DNA of 64,000 nt from a virus (lineage: Duplodnaviria; Heunggongvirae; Uroviricota; Caudoviricetes): positions 19,415 to 83,414 of the IMG/VR virus record IMGVR_UViG_2913177423_000001. One strand, 5' to 3'. Position numbers and translations under genes: made by a program. Positions 4,398 through 30,451 of the stretch are shown here, one piece after another (within the stretch, counting starts at the first letter, position 1; each line of letters starts with the position of its first letter). The notes beneath the pieces are model-generated. The model had not been told where the DNA came from. It was given only the letters and a program-made list of their open reading frames with translations, and did not search any database.

Positions 4398-4474
4398 GGT
4401 GGTGTAGCTCAGTAGGATAGAGCAGCAGCCTTCTAAGCTGTCGGTCGGTGGTTCGAATCCACTCACCATCGCCA
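4398..4474 (+). tRNA. tRNA-Arg (anticodon UCU, reads AGA)
   Basis: Cloverleaf folded by hand: acceptor GGTGGTG/CACCATC, D arm GCTC/GAGC, anticodon loop CTTCTAA, T arm GGTGG-TTCGAAT-CCACT, encoded CCA. Confidence 0.9.
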
Positions 4475-4478
4475 AATT

Positions 4479-4554
4479 GCCGATTTAGCTCAGTTGGTAG
4501 AGCAGTCGCTTTGTAAGCGAATGGTCAGCGGTTCGATCCCGTTAATCGGCACCA
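4479..4554 (+). tRNA. tRNA-Thr (anticodon UGU, reads ACA)
   Basis: Acceptor GCCGATT/AATCGGC, anticodon loop TTTGTAA, T arm AGCGG-TTCGATC-CCGTT, encoded CCA; 4 nt after tRNA-Arg. Confidence 0.9.
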
Positions 4555-5441: not shown

Positions 5442-5638
5442 CAACAGGTAAGAGCATTCTCCTGTAACGGGTTCATATCCCAATCTACAGGTCCACCAAG
5501 AATGCTCTTTCCGTTGCGGTGAATGCGGCTAAGCGCACGCGGAACAGTTAAAACAATCTTCCTTAATGTTTAAGTCAAACATCCCGGCGTTAATTGTTAA
5601 CTGGTTAACGTCACCTGGAGGCACCAGGCACCGCAATC
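5442..5638 (+). repeat. structured repeat unit, copy 3 (full)
   Basis: CAACAGGTAAGAGCATTCT...AGAATGCTCTTTCCGTTG stem, CGGTGAATGCGGCTAAGCGCAC tail, CCTGG-AGGCA-CCAGG hairpin, then CACCGCAATC. Confidence 0.5.
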
Positions 5639-6026: not shown

Positions 6027-6102
6027 GGCCCCTTAGCTCAGTGGTTAGAGCTGGCGACTCATAATCGCACGGCCATCGGTTCAAATCCGGTAGGGGCCAC
6101 CA
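6027..6102 (+). tRNA. tRNA with CAU anticodon, Ile2 (ileX-like, AUA reader) rather than Met
   Basis: Acceptor GGCCCCT/AGGGGCC, D arm and anticodon stem-loop GGCGA-CTCATAA-TCGC match my memory of E. coli ileX/ileY; encoded CCA. Confidence 0.85.
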
Positions 6103-14265: not shown

Positions 14266-14756
14266 TTTACGTAAAAGTGAAACGCCTACATCCGGCAGCG
14301 AAACTTCCAGCTTATGCCACTGCCGGATCGGCGGCGATGGATTTTGAGGCTGTTGAAATAACACCGTGCGTCGATAGCAATGGTGCAATTTCCTCAAGCT
14401 GGTGGGTGCATACCGGGCTGGCTATGGAGATCCCGCCCGGCTGGTGTCTGAAACTCTATCCGCGTTCCGGATTGGGCTGCAAAAAACATACTCGCCTGGC
14501 TAACTGTGTAGGAATTATCGACTCCGATTATCGCGGTGAAATCATGGCAAAACTGATTACTGATCCCGGCGGTGAAGGCGTTTGCCTCAAGCCAGGAATG
14601 GCGGTCATGCAAGGCATTTTTGAGCGTGTTGAACAAGTCTCTCTTGTCGAAGTTGAGGAACTCAACGAAACGGAACGTGGTGCTGGTGGCTTTGGTAGCA
14701 CATCAGAAGGCCGCTTTGAAATTAAGCGTTCACCGCTTCAGTACGAAAAGTTATAA
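14262..14756 (+). CDS. dut: dUTPase (trimeric Dut family)
   Basis: Motifs AGSAAMD, GIIDSDYRGE and RGAGGFGST. Confidence 0.85.
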   Translation: MIYVKVKRLHPAAKLPAYATAGSAAMDFEAVEITPCVDSNGAISSSWWVHTGLAMEIPPGWCLKLYPRSGLGCKKHTRLANCVGIIDSDYRGEIMAKLITDPGGEGVCLKPGMAVMQGIFERVEQVSLVEVEELNETERGAGGFGSTSEGRFEIKRSPLQYEKL

Positions 14757-26089: not shown

Positions 26090-26121
26090 GTGTTAGAAAA
26101 TCAATTTTGAATATCTAACAA
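26090..26121. promoter_or_regulatory. overlapping inverted pair of operator-like 17-mers in the divergent control region
   Basis: GTGTTAGAAAATCAATT (plus) and TTGTTAGATATTCAAAA (minus). Located between the leftward operon (start 26050) and ref (start 26169). Confidence 0.6.
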
Positions 26122-26168
26122 ATATGATCAATCATAAAAAAATCGCTGATAAGTAAGAGGCAGCCAAC

Positions 26169-26747
26169 ATGCAGAGACAGAGTTATTGGGAGAAACAGAG
26201 ACAAAAAGCCATGCAAAAACTGGCTGATCCGGAATGGCGGGAAGAGCAAAGGGCAAAACGTCTTCAGCAGGCTCAACGCCAGCAGCAACGCGCAAGGGAA
26301 AAAGCCGCATCGCCTGAATATCGTCAAAAGAAACTTGAAAAAGTGAGGCAAAGTGAACAGCGCAGAAGAGAGAGGGCGGCGTCAGCCCTCCCCAAAAAAA
26401 CGCGCCCGTCACGCGGATTAAAAGGGAGATCACTCACAGCAGAAGAGCGCCGGATACAGGAGGCTATAGGCAAACTCCCCTGTATTGCCTGCCATCTTCA
26501 CGGGAAGCATAGCCCTGTCGTATCTCTCCACCACATATTTGGCAGAACGGCTAAAGATGCCCATAAATACGTTCTCCCTTTGTGTAAATGGCACCACCAG
26601 CACGCAGCGCCAGCAGAGATCCGCGAACAATATCCCTGGTTGGTTCCTGTTCATGCTGATGGAAAAATAGGCGGGAAAGCAGATTTTATACGGCACAATG
26701 CCGAAGAGATGACGCTCTATCAGACGGTGCAAGAAATGGTGAATTAA
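26169..26747 (+). CDS. ref: Ref-like RecA-dependent HNH endonuclease
   Basis: Charged N-terminus, then SRGLKGRSLTAEERRI, LPCIACH, VSLHHI, LPLCKWHHQHAAPAEIREQYPWLVPVHADG; matches P1 Ref as I remember it. Confidence 0.85.
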   Translation: MQRQSYWEKQRQKAMQKLADPEWREEQRAKRLQQAQRQQQRAREKAASPEYRQKKLEKVRQSEQRRRERAASALPKKTRPSRGLKGRSLTAEERRIQEAIGKLPCIACHLHGKHSPVVSLHHIFGRTAKDAHKYVLPLCKWHHQHAAPAEIREQYPWLVPVHADGKIGGKADFIRHNAEEMTLYQTVQEMVN

Positions 26748-26758
26748 TTTTCTAACAT
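26742..26758 (-). promoter_or_regulatory. operator-like 17-mer ATGTTAGAAAATTAATT
   Basis: Overlaps the ref stop codon and sits just upstream of a possible promoter (TTGAGT...TGTACATT) for the immI-like region. Confidence 0.55.
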
Positions 26759-26875
26759 TTTATGTTGAGTTTGAAATTTACTGATTGTACATTTTGATTA
26801 GATTGGTTCACCGCTCGACGCAACGAGACAAATCCTCAAGGATTTCGTATGATTGCCAATGTCATAGTTATGGCA

Positions 26876-26942
26876 GCGCAATACAGGTGGCTAAAAGCCC
26901 CCGTTGACTCACGGTGTTCCAACCTGTATTGCGCCGCCACCA
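26876..26942 (+). ncRNA. candidate C4-like (tRNA-like) antisense regulatory RNA
   Basis: Perfect 13-bp closing stem GCGCAATACAGGT/ACCTGTATTGCGC enclosing two small hairpins (GGC-taaaa-GCC and CCGT-tgactc-ACGG), followed by CGCCACCA. Position (operator, RNA, small ORFs, antirepressor-like gene) mirrors P1 immI. Confidence 0.35.
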
Positions 26943-26986
26943 GACCGTGGAACAGTCTGTGACGGCTTCGAAAGCAAGGAGTCACT

Positions 26987-27082
26987 ATGAACAATTACAA
27001 ACTTTTCCCATCACTCACCGTCTACTCACGCAATAACCTGCGTTCTTTGCTCCCATCAAAACTGGAGGGAGTATCAAAATGA
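26987..27082 (+). CDS. 31-aa leader ORF (weak call)
   Basis: AAGGAG RBS; its stop overlaps the next ATG (ATGA). Confidence 0.3.
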   Translation: MNNYKLFPSLTVYSRNNLRSLLPSKLEGVSK

Positions 27083-27246
27083 CCGTTCGCTACCTGAATT
27101 ATCAAATCCAGAACATCACTGGCGGTTGCTATGACTGGTTTGTCACTCTTGGTAAAGAAGTGATCACCGGGAAGCTGGATGAAGTGAAAGCTAAAGCAAT
27201 GGCCTACGCCTGCAAGCAAGCCCAAAAGAAGAAAAGAAAAGCATAA
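27079..27246 (+). CDS. 55-aa basic-tailed protein (not in the ORF track)
   Basis: GGAGGGAG RBS 7 nt upstream. Translation is MTVRYLNYQIQNITGGCYDWFVTLGKEVITGKLDEVKAKAMAYACKQAQKKKRKA. Confidence 0.5.
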   Translation: MTVRYLNYQIQNITGGCYDWFVTLGKEVITGKLDEVKAKAMAYACKQAQKKKRKA

Positions 27247-27352
27247 GAAAACACACTGTTGCGCCCTGGCATTATCGTGGGGTATATTTCTACGGCACCT
27301 TAGAAAAACGGGTGCCGGGATTGGTCTCCCGGTAATGTCAAAGGCGACACAT

Positions 27353-27374
27353 AGACGCCGCAAGCGTCTTTTTT
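27353..27374 (+). terminator. intrinsic terminator inside the immI-like leader
   Basis: AGACGC-cgcaa-GCGTCT followed by TTTTT. Confidence 0.7.
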
Positions 27375-27538
27375 GTTGTCGGCGCACTCGCACACCTATC
27401 AATGGTGGGCTGTGTGGTGGCTTCCTCGGAAGCGCCGGTTCCCTTTGACGCCGGTAAGACCAACTCCACACAGTCCACCGCCAGTAAGATTGGTCTCTTC
27501 GGCGGTGGTATCGTTCACTGTCAAAGGAGGCTGCCAAT

Positions 27539-27754
27539 ATGGCTACTACCCCTACCCCAACTCATTCTGAATTTATCTGGCGTTTCTATTCCTGCCAAAA
27601 ACACCTGTATATCTGCGTAATGGCTGCTACCGAAGCAGAAGCTCGCTCATACCTTCCTGATACTCCCTGCATTTTTGCTGCCCGCTTCACTCTTGATGCG
27701 ATGGAGATCCTCAATTACTGGAATCTGCCGATGAACTGCGTGGAGGTGCACTGA
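27539..27754 (+). CDS. 71-aa protein in the position of P1 icd
   Basis: AAGGAGG RBS; its stop overlaps the ATG of the antirepressor-like gene (TGATG). Assigned by position only. Confidence 0.5.
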   Translation: MATTPTPTHSEFIWRFYSCQKHLYICVMAATEAEARSYLPDTPCIFAARFTLDAMEILNYWNLPMNCVEVH

Positions 27755-28680
27755 TGAATCTGTCCATCTCTCAAAAAGCGACAATGACCAGCATTGAGAT
27801 CGCGGAGCTGGTAGGTAAGCGTCCTGATAACGTTAAACGCACCATTGAACACCTAGCGGAACGGGGCGTAATATCTTTTCCTCAAATTGAGGAAAAGCCC
27901 ACCGCAGGGCGCCCGGCGAGCTATTACGTCTTCGAAGGCGAGCAAGGCAAGCGCGACAGCATTATTGTCGTCGCACAGCTTTCTCCTGAATTTACCGCCC
28001 GGCTGGTGGACCGCTGGCGCGAACTGGAGAATGCCAGGGGACCGTTAAAAACAAAGGCCGAAATTCTGGCTGAAATGGCGCAAATGCATCTTGAGCATGA
28101 ACGCAGGATCAACGCCGTAAATGCCCAGGTAGCCGAAGTTTCGGCACAAGTGTCCAGGGTCGCTGAAACCGTCGAGCAAATAAAGAAAGGCAATATGCCG
28201 GAAGGTTACATTGGCTACCGCCAGCTGGCGGCGAAATGTGGCTTGACTGAAGCCAAATGTCGCAACCTGGTCAACGCTTACCGTATCCCCACCGATACGC
28301 ATGAGTTTTTAACGCCCGATGGTTTGCTTGCCCGACGCTCCATTGTGGCCCTGGCCCCCTTCCGGAAAGCCTTTAAGCAGGTTATGTCGGAGGCCGAACC
28401 ACGTAATAAACGCTGGTATCATCCAAAAATGGGCCTCTTTCAGGCAATCCACCATCCTTTACCGAAAATCCCAAAAGATAATCTGTCACTGCATACAGCC
28501 AGAGAGAAGATCAGAAGTGGATATGCAACGGTATGCCGTCGTGCCTCATGGTCTGAAGGTGTATGGGTATGGCCCGAAGGCGGATCAAGGAAGCACTGGC
28601 GCACTATCCGAGATGGTAAAATTCATGCTATTGATTTAGCGCCAGAGGATATGGTTGCTATGGACTGGATTGTTAGTTAA
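27754..28680 (+). CDS. Rha-family antirepressor-like protein fused to a C-terminal DUF2829-like module
   Basis: N-terminal MTSIEIAELVGKRPDNVKRTIEHL fits Phage_pRha. C-terminal ...CRRASWSEGVWVWPEG...APEDMVAMDWIVS fits DUF2829. Confidence 0.7.
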   Translation: MNLSISQKATMTSIEIAELVGKRPDNVKRTIEHLAERGVISFPQIEEKPTAGRPASYYVFEGEQGKRDSIIVVAQLSPEFTARLVDRWRELENARGPLKTKAEILAEMAQMHLEHERRINAVNAQVAEVSAQVSRVAETVEQIKKGNMPEGYIGYRQLAAKCGLTEAKCRNLVNAYRIPTDTHEFLTPDGLLARRSIVALAPFRKAFKQVMSEAEPRNKRWYHPKMGLFQAIHHPLPKIPKDNLSLHTAREKIRSGYATVCRRASWSEGVWVWPEGGSRKHWRTIRDGKIHAIDLAPEDMVAMDWIVS

Positions 28681-28688
28681 TTACTGTT

Positions 28689-28710
28689 GCCCCGGCCTGT
28701 CCGGGGCTTT
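28689..28710 (+). terminator. intrinsic terminator
   Basis: GCCCCGG-cctgt-CCGGGGC followed by TTT. Confidence 0.7.
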
Positions 28711-28739
28711 AACTGCTAAATAATCGGATTCTCCGCACG

Positions 28740-29051
28740 ATGAAGAAAATAGATTTCACTTACTCTGCCGCCACAGTCCAGCGACGTTTCAGTCTCATAA
28801 GGGAAGTGGAACTATCAAAAACCGGGTATCAGGTTCTGTTGGATGAAGAGTTATCACTGATGGTAATAGCAGAAAAATTGGCTATGCCGAATGATCGGCA
28901 CAAAGTCATTGCAAGCCTTGACCTGGTAACAAACAGATACTGGGAAGCAGAGGGACCACATGGAGATGGTGTAATACGCGAAATGATTGAACAAGCGACG
29001 CCCCTACGCTATCGGATACGAAATGAAGTCACCATAATTGAAAGGTCTTAA
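28740..29051 (+). CDS. hypothetical protein, 103 aa
   Basis: ATG ORF; no motif recognised. Confidence 0.5.
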   Translation: MKKIDFTYSAATVQRRFSLIREVELSKTGYQVLLDEELSLMVIAEKLAMPNDRHKVIASLDLVTNRYWEAEGPHGDGVIREMIEQATPLRYRIRNEVTIIERS

Positions 29052-29182: not shown

Positions 29183-29533
29183 TTGGCTACTAAAGTTAAA
29201 CTAGAAAATCCGCAAACTGGCGAGTCAATAACAGGTTTTTATGGCTTTTCCTGGACTACATTCTTGTTTGGCGCTTTTCCAGCTTTGTTCAGGAAAGACT
29301 TTATAACTTTTGTTGGGGTATTCGTTGTGATGCTGATACTGGCATGCCTCACATTCGGAATTGGCCCTTGGATAGCCTCGTTTATCTGGGCGTTCATGTA
29401 CAATAAATATTTCACCGTAAATAAGATAAAACAAGGATTCGTATTTGCTAGTTCTCACACAGAAAATGAGTTAGCCGCCAGCAAACTTGGATTAGCCTTA
29501 AATCAAAACAACTGCAAAACTATTACCGCGTGA
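29183..29533 (+). CDS. small inner-membrane protein (DUF2628-like), AT-rich moron
   Basis: TTG start; two TM segments after the FYGFSWTTFLFGAFPALFRKDF motif. Confidence 0.5.
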   Translation: MATKVKLENPQTGESITGFYGFSWTTFLFGAFPALFRKDFITFVGVFVVMLILACLTFGIGPWIASFIWAFMYNKYFTVNKIKQGFVFASSHTENELAASKLGLALNQNNCKTITA

Positions 29534-29537
29534 AACC

Positions 29538-29570
29538 AAAAAAGCAGGCTTATTTTAAGCCTGCTTTTTC
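29538..29570. terminator. bidirectional intrinsic terminator
   Basis: AAAAAAGCAGGCTTA-tttt-AAGCCTGCTTTTT between convergent genes. Confidence 0.8.
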
Positions 29571-29575
29571 GATTA

Positions 29576-30451
29576 CTAGTCCTGCTGACAATTAAGGAAC
29601 ATAAACGCACGTTTGTCCGTTAAATCAGTAACATAATATTCACGAATACCATTCGGTTTTATGCGGCGAGCATACACAAACTTATGAACTGGCTGGTCGC
29701 TGCCATAACTAACCTCAGTGCGAAATTCATCGACCGTGCTACCATCCTTTTCTGTCTCTTTGCGTATCAGTTTATTGTTCAGATCTGGCTGAGTCTCATC
29801 CATTCCGCTAAATGCATCTTGCCCGGTACTATTACCCCGGTTGCCACGTGGTAAATCCCACGAAAAATAAGTCCCATAGTCTGTAATTACCTGATCCCAC
29901 GCCCCGGTTTCATCCATATAATGACTACGCTTCCCTTGGTATGTTACGTCAACCTTACAGGAAAACGTTGGCGCGCTATTACTTGCAGCTGAGGCCGTTG
30001 AAGATTGTGTAACACTGCCATTGTTGGCATTTCCATAGTTCCAGCCATCATGCAACGCTTTAACCCACAGATTAGTCAGGGATAGCGTAACATCATTCCC
30101 CAACGCCTGGCTGATTCGAAGCCTCTGTATCCGGCGTAACCCATACTCATAGGCTTCATCGTCATTAATCACTCGCCCACGTTGAGCGGCTACCACCCCA
30201 GATTGCCACGCACGATTAATTTCACGAATAAGATACACTTGTGGATCAACGCCGTATCTGTTGTATTCATAGTAAAGGCTCATTGCGCCGTGTTGGCTCT
30301 GGTATTCATTAGCCCATGATATAACCGCGTTTCTTCCATAATCCGCGAGCGCAGAATGACTTGACAGAAGAAGAGCAACGCCAACAGTCTTCAGTAATTT
30401 GAATCGGCACAACTTTTTAATAATACGATTGGGAAATGTTTTTTTGCTCAC
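29576..30451 (-). CDS. secreted protein of unknown function, 291 aa (moron)
   Basis: Signal peptide LLKTVGVALLLSSHSALA; own terminator; surrounded by AT-rich DNA. Confidence 0.65.
   Translation of the reverse strand: MSKKTFPNRIIKKLCRFKLLKTVGVALLLSSHSALADYGRNAVISWANEYQSQHGAMSLYYEYNRYGVDPQVYLIREINRAWQSGVVAAQRGRVINDDEAYEYGLRRIQRLRISQALGNDVTLSLTNLWVKALHDGWNYGNANNGSVTQSSTASAASNSAPTFSCKVDVTYQGKRSHYMDETGAWDQVITDYGTYFSWDLPRGNRGNSTGQDAFSGMDETQPDLNNKLIRKETEKDGSTVDEFRTEVSYGSDQPVHKFVYARRIKPNGIREYYVTDLTDKRAFMFLNCQQD

Follow-up and report, generated by a model that had tools for sequence, protein, structure and literature searches.

The immI region of phages P1 and P7 comprises, in order, Oc4/Op51, a1 and b1, the c4 RNA, a2 and b2, icd and ant1/ant2, and the P1 C4 RNA was reportedly found by Citron and Schuster in 1990 to act in trans. 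The CI RNA of satellite phage P4 is cut, with the involvement of RNase P, out of the leader of its own target operon, and it base-pairs at two places within that transcript; it acts through transcription termination, not by blocking a ribosome-binding site. At the Salmonella prophage Gifsy-1 locus and the isrK and C4 pairs of Stx-converting and APSE phages, an IsrK-family RNA is followed by a C4-family RNA and then by an antirepressor-type gene (PMC7313666), and translation of the Gifsy-1 antirepressor requires an upstream coupled ORF (PMC4825925). The D6-like plasmid pYU39_89 is listed (Table S1) with ref, a hypothetical gene, isrK, c4, icd and rha, and the same table has another c4-icd-kilA region following repL (PMC6799933; Silva et al. 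2019).

Here, we analysed positions 26742-28680 of a 64-kb stretch of viral DNA (the window). This region shares 85.6% identity with phage D6, in which the gene order is ref, three hypothetical genes, an Icd-like gene and Ant. We read it, with a probability of about 0.75, as the immI-type region for antirepressor control that lies next to ref in a D6-like phage-plasmid of the P1 family, carrying two tandem C4-type antisense modules on the + strand: module 1 at 26742-27246 (operator, promoters, C4#1, 31-codon ORF and 55-aa ORF) and module 2, the canonical one, at 27259-28680 (IsrK-like RNA, C4#2, icd and a Rha/Ant-type gene). That figure applies to the whole two-module reading, with processing, action in trans and gating of the 55-aa protein included. 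The reading draws on homology, structure, complementarity and covariation computed here from sequence; processing, trans action, promoter use and the part assigned to the 55-aa protein are inferred. The IsrK-like RNA, the C4 antisense RNA, icd and the antirepressor gene are known in this region, and relatives differ in their immunity alleles. They are preceded by a second C4-like RNA, so far unannotated, which probably governs a separate pair of small genes. The features of module 2 are as follows.

27259-27288, + strand: putative promoter of the IsrK-like RNA, read by eye (TTGCGC at 27259-64, 18-nt spacer, TATATT at 27283-88)
27295-27374, + strand: IsrK-like RNA (Rfam isrK 61 bits, threshold 50), ending at the terminator
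27321-27, + strand: a1 (UUGGUCU), decoy site in the IsrK-like RNA
27337-44, + strand: b1 (GUCAAAGG), decoy site in the IsrK-like RNA
27353-69 plus U run, + strand: intrinsic terminator of the IsrK-like RNA (terminator scan)
27404-27482, + strand: C4#2, predicted canonical C4 antisense RNA (Rfam C4 73.7 bits, E = 4e-13)
27403-19 with 27464-80, + strand: closing stem of C4#2
27442-49, + strand: b' CCUUUGAC, hairpin loop of C4#2
27457-63, + strand: a' AGACCAA, junction of C4#2
27490-96, + strand: a2 (UUGGUCU), target of C4#2
27520-27, + strand: b2 (GUCAAAGG), target of C4#2, overlapping the icd Shine-Dalgarno AAGGAGG (27524-30)
27539-27754, + strand: icd, 71 aa (NF033153 50.2 bits, cut-off 25; Icd-like in the D6 annotation)
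27754-28680, + strand: Rha/Ant-type antirepressor gene, 308 aa (PF09669 30.6 bits, cut-off 29.9; phrog_63 'anti-repressor Ant', E = 4e-64)

The layout of this module corresponds element by element to the P1 annotation (operator, a1, b1, c4, a2, b2, icd, ant), which bears out the proposal of an earlier note on this DNA that an immI-like antirepressor-control module lies here. The full-length Rfam C4 match of C4#2 covers 27398-27485, and its stem arms, GGTGGGCTGTGTGG and CCACACAGTCCACC at 27404-17 and 27466-79, form 13 Watson-Crick pairs out of 14 plus one G.U. The a2/b2 sites are perfect complements of the C4#2 junction and loop. The two copies of GATTGGTCTC, at 27319-28 and 27488-97, are the a1 and a2 sites, and GTCAAAGG occurs as b1 at 27337 and as b2 at 27520; in the window, the bipartite target turns up in just three places, against 0 expected: a1b1, a2b2 and the C4 gene, where it is on the opposite strand. 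The helices of C4#2 covary in relatives, as do its pairings with a2/b2. Across 14 sequences including P1, 97.8% of the cells are paired and 19 pairs are changed on both sides (0/500 shuffles as high; slid controls 27-50%). The a1/a' and b1/b' pairings likewise covary across relatives, where a has three alleles and b has two, each switching jointly in the C4#2 RNA and both target sets. The promoter of the IsrK-like RNA lies just 5' of isrK match position 1 and is variable at 3 of its 30 columns. The icd product is 64% identical to P1 Icd (E = 3e-28), and the icd stop shares one base with the ATG at 27754; the two genes are translationally coupled. Homology of the 308-aa antirepressor to P1 Ant1 was undetectable (E = 0.025).

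The earlier note had already placed the 71-aa ORF in the icd position and called the last gene Rha/Ant-like, and both assignments held. The terminator that it reported at 27353-27374 is present and belongs to an IsrK-like RNA carrying a1/b1, which had been missed; similarly, the direct repeats GATTGGTCTC and GATTGGTTCA exist, the role of the GATTGGTCTC copies as target sites having gone unrecognised. Its "structured leader" has a real stem, with coordinates given one base too high, but the element is in fact the canonical C4.

It had also offered a single-RNA scheme, which we consider highly improbable: a single C4-like RNA at 26876-26942 would be the P1 c4 counterpart, repressing both the 31-aa ORF and icd/ant, and 27404-27480 would be merely a structured leader. 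The upstream RNA is indeed C4-like, and CCCCCGTTGAC matches GTCAAAGGAGG at 9 of 11 positions. However, this string at 26898-908, opposed to the icd ribosome-binding site, matches no better than chance, falls partly within a stem and does not follow the b2 allele changes among relatives. Where GTCAAAGG at b2 is replaced by GCAAAAGG, C4#1 remains invariant, and its match to the icd site is therefore not maintained. Moreover, its CCCCCG lies largely within helices or the inter-helix linker, and its loop pairs with the icd ribosome-binding site at -5.0 kcal/mol, compared to -14.4 for the cognate C4#2, the full-length match whose complementarity covaries in relatives. Control of icd/ant by one upstream RNA is thus contradicted by the covariation of C4#2 with a2/b2. 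For icd/ant, the P1 c4 homologue does lie elsewhere, as the earlier note had allowed, and is C4#2; the C4-like RNA at 26872-26941 still stands. The features of module 1 are as follows.

26742-26758, + strand: operator word AATTAATTTTCTAACAT, presumed from its sequence to be a C1-type repressor site, overlapping the ref stop codon
26766-26794, + strand: putative operator-adjacent promoter, read by eye (-35 TTGAGT at 26766-71, 17-nt spacer, -10 TACATT at 26789-94)
26801-26810, + strand: GATTGGTTCA, a weak candidate, probably a vestigial a1-type site of the upstream module
26825-26853, + strand: candidate own promoter of C4#1 (GAGACA, 17 nt, TATGAT; simple consensus promoter scan)
26872-26941, + strand: C4#1, putative divergent C4-type antisense RNA, with ends placed by analogy with P1 C4
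26889-99, + strand: hairpin 1 of C4#1
26901-14, + strand: hairpin 2 of C4#1
26905-10, + strand: b'* UGACUC, hairpin-2 loop of C4#1
26915-21, + strand: a'* UGUUCCA, junction of C4#1
26948-54, + strand: a2* UGGAACA, predicted target of C4#1
26979-84, + strand: b2* GAGUCA, predicted target of C4#1 within the Shine-Dalgarno AAGGAG (26976-81) of the 31-aa ORF
26987-27082, + strand: leader ORF of 31 codons occupying the place of icd, probably icd in truncated form
27079-27246, + strand: 55-aa ORF, payload of the upstream module (phrog_7786, E = 6e-41)

C4#1 scores 39.7 bits against Rfam C4 (E = 4.6e-4 over the 64-kb window with all 4227 families), below the gathering threshold of 45. Its perfect 13-bp stem (26876-88 with 26922-34) extends to 18 positions (26871-88 with 26922-39; 17 pairs and one A.C mismatch) and is followed by the 3' CGCCACCA at 26935-42; an NCCA motif comes after the closing stem. 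The minimum free energy is -36.2 kcal/mol (z = -4.4; 0/200 shuffles fold equally well), the three-helix fold is common to C4#1 and P1 C4, and a model built on C4#1 recovers canonical C4 RNAs at 36-41 bits. The a'* and b'* elements occupy the same positions as a' and b' in P1 C4 and are invariant across D6-like loci. Their bipartite target, TGGAACA-N-GAGTCA, is found once in 64 kb (0.06 expected), 6 nt 3' of C4#1, and the start-to-start a2-b2 spacing is 31 nt in module 1, 30 in module 2 and 29 in P1. GATTGGTTCA resembles the a1 loop GATTGGTCTC and pairs with the C4#1 junction at just 6 of 8 positions. Most of what the earlier note had described here was confirmed: the C4-like RNA with a tRNA-like 3' end, its 13-bp closing stem, two hairpins and CGCCACCA, the exact complementarity of loop TGACTC to GAGTCA at the 31-aa ORF, the ATGA junction of the 31-aa and 55-aa ORFs, and the operator word, of which the window holds 8 copies at up to 3 mismatches (0.23 expected). 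The "faint resemblance" of the C4#1 stem to repeats elsewhere found no support: the window contains no further C4-like match beyond C4#1 and C4#2, and no close copy of the stem word was found elsewhere.

C4#1 might be a decaying C4 duplicate without present function, the small ORFs being expressed, or not, independently of it. This we regard as unlikely. Consistent with decay are the score under the Rfam threshold, the short b pairing (6 bp, -8.7 kcal/mol, vs at least 8 bp and -14 to -17 kcal/mol in canonical pairs), the truncation to 31 codons of the icd that follows, the decayed copy with a damaged ribosome-binding site at locus L071, and locus L035, which has the 55-aa ORF homologue and lacks the upstream C4. 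Against it, C4#1 is present in 119 plasmids and varies less than any other segment of the region (6/71 columns variable) whereas its flanks vary, and the targets, promoter-like hexamers, reading frame and ATGA overlap are all retained. In the D6-like set, one-sided stem changes preserve G.U pairs on the + strand only, most copies have a U.U mismatch in the stem, and no pair is changed on both sides within this closely related set. With L105 and L106 added, 18/26 helix pairs are changed on both sides (0/500 shuffles as high) in an alignment that was fitted to the model, holds few divergent loci (L075, L105, L106) and includes one canonical C4.

Loop and target pairs also survive sequence change, a further point against decay. 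At L007, L069, L070, L075 and L105, a C4#1 counterpart lies directly 5' of a real Icd-like ORF, then of a 55-aa ORF homologue; at L007, L069, L075 and L105 the ORF in the leader position is a full Icd-like one (NF033153, 48 bits). In L075, a G-C pair replaces A-U in a'/a2, and the b pairing, at 9-10 bp, is longer than that of the window. The closing stem of L105 is unrelated in sequence, and its loop differs, with a corresponding ribosome-binding-site change; its cognate duplex, at -13.6 kcal/mol, is far better than those with the window-type site (-7.5) and the L075 site (-9.9), but the comparison is not specific by energy alone, since the same hairpin-2 loop pairs almost as well with module-2 icd sites (-13.5 kcal/mol) and with the P1 site (-11.9), being complementary to the GGAGGCU Shine-Dalgarno context. 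The tandem layout is retained in L106, whose upstream C4 exceeds the threshold (48.1 bits) and lies directly before the 55-aa ORF homologue, preceded by a c4-a1b1-like element (26 bits); this C4 has good a1/b1-like partners, and no convincing a2/b2 for it was found in the leader of the 55-aa ORF homologue.

The 26872-26941 structure could instead act in cis only, as a site of processing, by RNase P or otherwise, or as a leader fold setting mRNA stability or ribosome access, and no diffusible immunity repressor would then be made. C4#1 and its targets do lie on one transcript, 6 nt apart, in the folded L075 precursor the leader is paired in cis to the loop and junction, and the homologous Gifsy-1 IsrK region acts both in cis and in trans (PMC4825925). 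In the window precursor, however, the minimum-free-energy fold has the C4#1 domain folding alone, with the leader forming separate small hairpins. The NCCA end and long closing stem are features of the excised P1 RNA, and P1 C4 is the trans-acting precedent mentioned above. We therefore judge a purely cis-acting structure to be quite unlikely.

The operator word is kept in D6, L007, L035 and L075, as is the adjacent TTGA(G/T/C)N-17-(T/C)A(C/A)ATT pattern despite unrelated spacers. For the candidate C4#1 promoter, the -35 hexamer is invariant among 25 D6-like sequences, the -10 has a single variable position (G or T), and 9 of the 17 spacer columns are variable; (G/A)AGACA-N17-TATGAT, TAATAT or TATCAT is found again in L007, L075 and L105. 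The 31-codon ORF peptide is variable, with the frame and ATGA overlap retained in all variants. The 55-aa ORF is represented by 16 clusters, almost all of them from contigs or plasmids ~90 kb long, and its predicted structure (AlphaFold pLDDT 84) has four strands and a basic C-terminal helix, for which fold searches with the model returned no match.

In module 2, the conserved promoter would produce an IsrK-like RNA with the a1 and b1 sites, stopping at the intrinsic terminator. Read-through transcripts would contain C4#2, which, by analogy with P1, may be excised by RNase P; its a'/b' would pair with a2/b2, covering the icd ribosome-binding site, and with icd untranslated the coupled antirepressor would not be produced. 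In P1, loss of icd translation also leads to Rho-dependent termination. The short IsrK-like RNA could pair with a'/b' and relieve the block in trans, as suggested by Gifsy-1 IsrK. In module 1, the C1-type operator and promoter, followed by the second promoter-like site, would drive C4#1, whose UGUUCCA and UGACUC would pair with 26948-54 and 26979-84 and occlude the ribosome-binding site of the leader ORF. The stop of that ORF overlaps the 55-aa ORF start, and C4#1 would therefore gate the 55-aa protein.

Compared with known systems, module 2 matches P1/P7 immI in order and spacing, C4#2 has the three-helix shape of P1 C4, where the loop of hairpin 2 likewise holds b' and the junction a', and the covarying allelic versions of RNA and targets are like those of P1/P7 heteroimmunity. 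Unlike P1 immI, the module adjoins ref, not sim, its antirepressor is of the Rha family without clear similarity to Ant1, its a1/b1 element scores as isrK, not c4-a1b1, and ~500 bp (the second C4 paralogue and two small ORFs) separate the operator promoter from a1/b1. Related plasmids also have a separate c4, nearly identical to that of P1, in a c4-icd module adjoining repL, outside the window. The order in pYU39_89 is the same as here, its hypothetical gene being the 55-aa ORF; the upstream C4-like RNA (14583-14702 there) and leader ORF are missing from its annotation and likewise unannotated in the D6 and RefSeq records. P4 CI, as outlined at the start, would be a further parallel. Finally, the Gifsy-1 IsrK-orf45-AnrP region and the isrK and C4 pairs of Stx-converting phages and APSE share with this locus an IsrK with terminator, a C4 within ~25 nt and an antirepressor-type gene. 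The Gifsy-1 work describes activation by IsrK without mention of C4; the coupled ORF here, in contrast, is a recognisable icd, and the host element is a plasmid prophage. From coordinates alone, counted from the first base of IsrK, Gifsy-1 IsrK G28 and G31, for which compensatory mutations with C162 and C159 were described, would fall at the a1/a' pairing seen here.

The region from 26742 to 28680 is a real immI-type module, so the overall reading of the earlier note holds and every structural item it listed is present in the sequence, although the assignment of the parts needs correction. Escherichia phage D6, a P1-family plasmid prophage, is 85.6% identical to the window over 26100-28800, and its record lists Ref, three hypothetical proteins, an Icd-like protein and the anti-repressor Ant at the matching region, with no RNA annotated there. 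The window carries a canonical C4 RNA (C4#2), which together with an IsrK-like RNA, icd and a Rha/Ant-type gene forms module 2, and a divergent upstream C4-like RNA (C4#1), which with a 31-codon ORF and a 55-aa ORF forms module 1.

Features of the immI-type region, in window coordinates
26742-26758, + strand: candidate C1-type operator word (P1 Oc4/Op51 type), 17 bp, asymmetric
26825-53: promoter-like site GAGACA-17-TATGAT, upstream of C4#1
26872-26941: C4#1, C4-like RNA of module 1
27404-27482: C4#2, C4 RNA of module 2; Rfam C4 gathering score (45 bits) passed
27539-27754: icd (71 aa); NF033153 at 50.2 bits, above the curated cut-off of 25 bits; 64% identical to P1 Icd
27754-28680: Rha/Ant antirepressor gene (308 aa); PF09669 at 30.6 bits (cut-off 29.9); phrog_63, E = 4e-64

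Ref was confirmed in the window by PF16786. By its family match, the product of 27539-27754 is a predicted member of the Icd-like cell-division inhibitors, and that of 27754-28680 is, by family membership, a predicted Rha/Ant-type antirepressor, the PF09669 and phrog_63 matches confirming the gene as it had been named before; no homology of this protein to P1 Ant1 was detectable. The 17-bp word is found in 8 copies in the window at up to 3 mismatches (0.23 expected), and 7 nt separate its end from the -35 of the conserved promoter. In sequence and position it resembles a repressor operator of the immI promoter. In addition, ref is probably under repressor control, because copies of the word lie on both of its sides, at 26090-26106 (-) and 26742-26758 (+).

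Rfam C4 (RF01695) matched in full length (1-87) at 27398-27485, with 73.7 bits against a threshold of 45 and E = 4e-13; the element read earlier as a structured leader is therefore the C4 itself. The stem described for that leader, GGTGGGCTGTGTGG (27404-17) with CCACACAGTCCACC (27466-79), is present, but its coordinates had been set one base too high. As in P1, AU-GG precedes the stem and GCCA follows it, a sequence context in which RNase P would make the 5' end of a putative immunity repressor acting in trans. Upstream, isrK (RF01394) matched at 27295-27374 with 61 bits (gathering score 50, model positions 1-77), and the terminator noticed earlier exists but belongs to this IsrK-like RNA, as its intrinsic terminator (27353-69 and a U run). 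A minus-strand ORF of 171 aa (27022-27537), which overlaps both RNAs and is without a family match, was treated as spurious.

The junction of C4#2 (a', AGACCAA, 27457-63) matches UUGGUCU at the upstream decoy site a1 (27321-27) and at the target a2 (27490-96); the GATTGGTCTC direct repeats of the earlier note are present and can now be identified as these two sites. Its hairpin-2 loop (b', CCUUUGAC, 27442-49) matches GUCAAAGG at 27337-44 (b1) and at 27520-27 (b2), the latter overlapping the Shine-Dalgarno sequence of icd. All of these matches are exact, over 7 nt and 8 nt, downstream as well as upstream, and the bipartite word of module 2 occurs in the window only as a1b1, as a2b2 and, on the opposite strand, as the C4 gene (0 expected). 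The c4-a1b1 motif (RF03163) scored 17.6 bits at 27282-27335, below its gathering score of 46.7 and compared with 51 bits in P1 and 54 bits in pTB423; despite this low score, the a1 and b1 sites are present in the window and covary.

The isrK (RF01394, no clan) and c4-a1b1 (RF03163, C4 clan) models match overlapping stretches of one element upstream of C4, here at 27282-27374 and also in a distant related locus (L035, 2697-2786), P1 (L034, 918-1012) and pTB423 (L081, 29516-29610). The strength of the two matches is reciprocal between phages, and the two families appear to model one homologous RNA. Also, in related plasmids a RefSeq CDS for a 39-aa "ash family protein" sits exactly on the C4 gene, just upstream of icd (window equivalent 27401-27520 (+); related loci L072, 2059-2178, and L073, 3553-3672). 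This ORF had no NCBIfam or Pfam match; the protein call is probably spurious, made on top of an RNA gene.

Covariation was analyzed in 32 viral-contig loci found via the 55-aa ORF, together with P1 and the distant locus L035. For the helices of C4#2 and its a'/a2 and b'/b2 pairings, 97.8% pairing was observed, and both sides had changed in 19 pairs; none of 500 shuffles scored as high, and the slid controls gave 27-50%. The a1/a' and b1/b' pairings covary likewise. Three a alleles (UUGGUCU, UUGGAAC and UUGAGAC) and two b alleles (GUCAAAGG and GCAAAAGG) are found in the relatives, each matched in the RNA, the same pattern as in the heteroimmunity of P1 and P7. Among the distinct variants aligned, the window allele is common to one other locus only (L018). 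Module 2 is an ordinary module of an already known kind: the detailed annotation of P1 shows the same layout, Stx-converting and APSE phages are known to have isrK directly 5' of C4 (PMC7313666), and isrK, c4, icd and rha have already been annotated in the D6-like plasmid pYU39_89 (PMC6799933).

C4#1 had been proposed in the earlier note as a tRNA-like, C4-like RNA, and this was borne out by an end-to-end match to Rfam C4 (RF01695) at 39.7 bits, below the gathering score of 45 (E = 4.6e-4 with all 4227 Rfam families run against the whole window; 36.5-42.7 bits in close relatives). C4#1 shares the architecture of P1 C4: 26871-88 pairs with 26922-39 in a closing stem of 18 positions, interrupted by a single A.C mismatch, and the RNA further has two hairpins and a 3' CGCCACCA, with ACCA directly after the closing stem; the MFE z-score is -4.4. 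Conversely, canonical C4 RNAs are recovered at 36-41 bits by a covariance model trained on C4#1 sequences. We class C4#1, by this sequence and structure comparison, as a second C4 paralogue, which current annotation misses because its score lies below the Rfam threshold.

The junction of C4#1 (UGUUCCA, 26915-21) is the exact complement of 26948-54, and its loop (UGACUC, 26905-10) that of 26979-84, inside the Shine-Dalgarno sequence of the 31-codon ORF, as had been seen earlier for the loop. This bipartite target (7 nt and 6 nt) is unique in the 64 kb, where 0.06 would be expected, and the spacing of the target sites is 31 nt in module 1, 30 in module 2 and 29 in P1. The loop pairing comprises only 6 bp, and the loop and junction complementarity is longer in P1. 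Pairing of C4#1 with the ribosome-binding site of icd, which had also been suggested, is not conserved: C4#1 stays unchanged where b2 switches allele, and the predicted duplex is weak, at -5.0 kcal/mol where the cognate C4 gives -14.4 kcal/mol.

Conservation in the region peaks in C4#1, where 6/71 columns are variable; the upstream segments on either side vary at 8/18 and 9/17 columns. The promoter-like site has an invariant -35, one variable position in the -10 and a variable spacer. Among close D6-like relatives, in which the RNA is nearly invariant, no pair was changed on both sides; in four cases a change on one side leaves a G.U pair, and does so on the + strand only, and a single U.U mismatch occurs in most copies. 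When the C4#1-type RNAs, including those of the related loci L105 and L106, were aligned with one canonical C4, 18/26 pairs changed on both sides (0/500 shuffles as high), in a model-fitted alignment that leans towards structure by construction. An exact 20-mer of C4#1 was found in viral contigs only in the same D6-like contigs. The resemblance of the closing stem to the repeats of the "RNA island" is without support, as we found neither a further C4-like element nor another copy of the stem word in the window.

The window also contains a sub-threshold Rfam STnc100 match at 5515-5635 (+) (42.4 bits, threshold 47, E = 8e-6), between tRNA genes at 4398-4554 and 6027-6102.

The canonical C4 of most D6-like relatives has the junction GUUCCAA, equal in specificity to the C4#1 junction, and by sequence the two modules could there cross-talk through the a site. 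In the window they are orthogonal because the a allele of the canonical C4 is another one (AGACCAA, 27457-63, versus the C4#1 junction at 26915-21).

Counterparts of module 1 were identified in several relatives. In five loci (L007, L069, L070, L075 and L105) the same RNA lies directly 5' of a genuine Icd-like ORF (48 bits for NF033153), and a homologue of the 55-aa ORF comes next; no second module was found in the 1.5-2.5 kb flank of L007, L069, L070 and L075, nor in L105. The complementarity between loop or junction and target is maintained through sequence change in L075 and L105. In L075 hairpin 1 is lost, the loop pairing has grown to 9-10 bp, and G-C replaces A-U in one a'/a2 pair. L105 keeps the RNA core, with an unrelated closing stem of 15 bp and a different loop, UUGUAGGCUUC; the match of this loop to the ribosome-binding site of L105 itself, GGAGCCACAA, is far better than that to the window-type or L075 sites. 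This loop pairs almost equally with the module-2 icd sites (-13.5 kcal/mol versus -13.6 with its own site) because it is complementary to the Shine-Dalgarno context. The tandem layout is kept in L106, where a c4-a1b1-like element comes first, then an upstream C4 that exceeds the threshold (48.1 bits) and lies directly 5' of the 55-aa ORF homologue, and after these isrK and a second C4; no clear a2/b2 was seen there in the leader of the 55-aa ORF. The distant locus L035 has the 55-aa ORF homologue without any upstream C4, and one locus was obtained when viral contigs were searched with Icd#1. The plasmid pSa1423-90k carries the whole region in decayed form (L071, 1498-2110; isrK 29.6 bits, C4 54 bits), with the upstream C4 kept and its target ribosome-binding site damaged.

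The 31-codon ORF encodes 29-31 aa of variable sequence in its variants, all of which keep its frame and its ATGA overlap with the 55-aa ORF. It is without the Icd domain; similarity to the N-terminus of the full-length L007 Icd-like ORF is seen in its first codons and in an LP.SK stretch, and we read it as a putative truncated icd that would now serve as a coupling leader. The 55-aa ORF is conserved, with 16 clusters that come almost entirely from contigs of about 90 kb. It belongs to phrog_7786, a PHROGs family with no assigned function, and in Pfam it matched only DUF3319, sub-threshold. A fold of four strands and a basic helix was confidently predicted for the protein, with no Foldseek match of E < 0.1 in PDB or BFVD, and no similarity to P1 Coi was detected. 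Its distant homologues (L108-L110) stand in unrelated contexts without C4, and a profile search of genome contigs with the 55-aa ORF alignment found nothing relevant.

Two further observations concern this ORF. In some D6-like plasmids (L036 and L037, 2672-4361, also L038) an IS200/IS605-family element (TnpB/OrfB and Y1 transposase) has inserted immediately behind the 55-aa ORF, reaching slightly into its end, at the expected start of the IsrK-like RNA, and alters the C-terminus of the protein. Moreover, a 23-nt inverted repeat (27054-27076 / 27658-27680, 87% complementary, 581 nt apart) links the ribosome-binding region of the 55-aa ORF to the coding region of icd; it is confined to the window-type lineage (19/23 in L042) and absent from most D6-like loci.

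A further module, consisting of c4-a1b1, C4, icd and Rha, adjoins repL in two related plasmids:

L081 (pTB423), 29516-29721: repL-side module
L080 (pYU39_89), 290-490: repL-side module

The repL-side C4 of pTB423 has the P1 b' loop, and that of pYU39_89 differs from P1 C4 only in the b' loop. In front of the pYU39_89 module lies the operator word in inverted orientation. pTB423 is about 93% identical to the window and, by synteny, the corresponding module would lie about 8 kb before the window start. D6-like phages probably have three C4-type RNAs, because both plasmids carry the repL-side module.

We propose that D6-like phage-plasmids may run three separate C4 channels (the repL-side one, nearly identical to that of P1, C4#2 and C4#1), with a/b specificities that are largely orthogonal and diversifying, and that the previously unannotated C4#1 may gate the 55-aa protein, possibly a new small anti-immunity or lysis-lysogeny effector, via a truncated-icd leader. 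We give this tentative reading roughly one chance in three. What is new here is an unannotated C4 paralogue that comes with targets of its own and an uncharacterised 55-aa payload. If it works as proposed, immunity in the D6-like plasmid prophages, a large and clinically common family, would be set by several parallel antisense locks and not by one; allelic a/b variants would then define heteroimmunity groups, and the lysis-lysogeny switch would gain a candidate new regulator in the 55-aa protein.

The P1 studies behind our expectations on promoters, processing and in-trans action are reportedly those of Citron and Schuster (1990), Biere et al. (1992) and Hartmann et al. (1995). We infer these three properties for the RNAs described here from P1 and from the IsrK of Gifsy-1 (PMC4825925). 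Hfq binding and in-trans activation of the downstream antirepressor by IsrK are known for Gifsy-1 only (PMC4825925). When compared with window 27295-27540 by coordinates only, the Gifsy-1 "orf45" (+107 to about +244, counted from where IsrK starts) covers the positions of C4 and a2/b2, so that its equation with C4 is one of coordinates. Likewise by coordinates, the IsrK/orf45 pairs G28-C162 and G31-C159, proven by compensatory mutation (PMC4825925), fall on a1 and a'. A 2025 review treats the IsrK and P1 a1b1-C4 systems separately; by this analogy, the Salmonella IsrK system may be the same kind of circuit as the a1/b1-C4 of P1.
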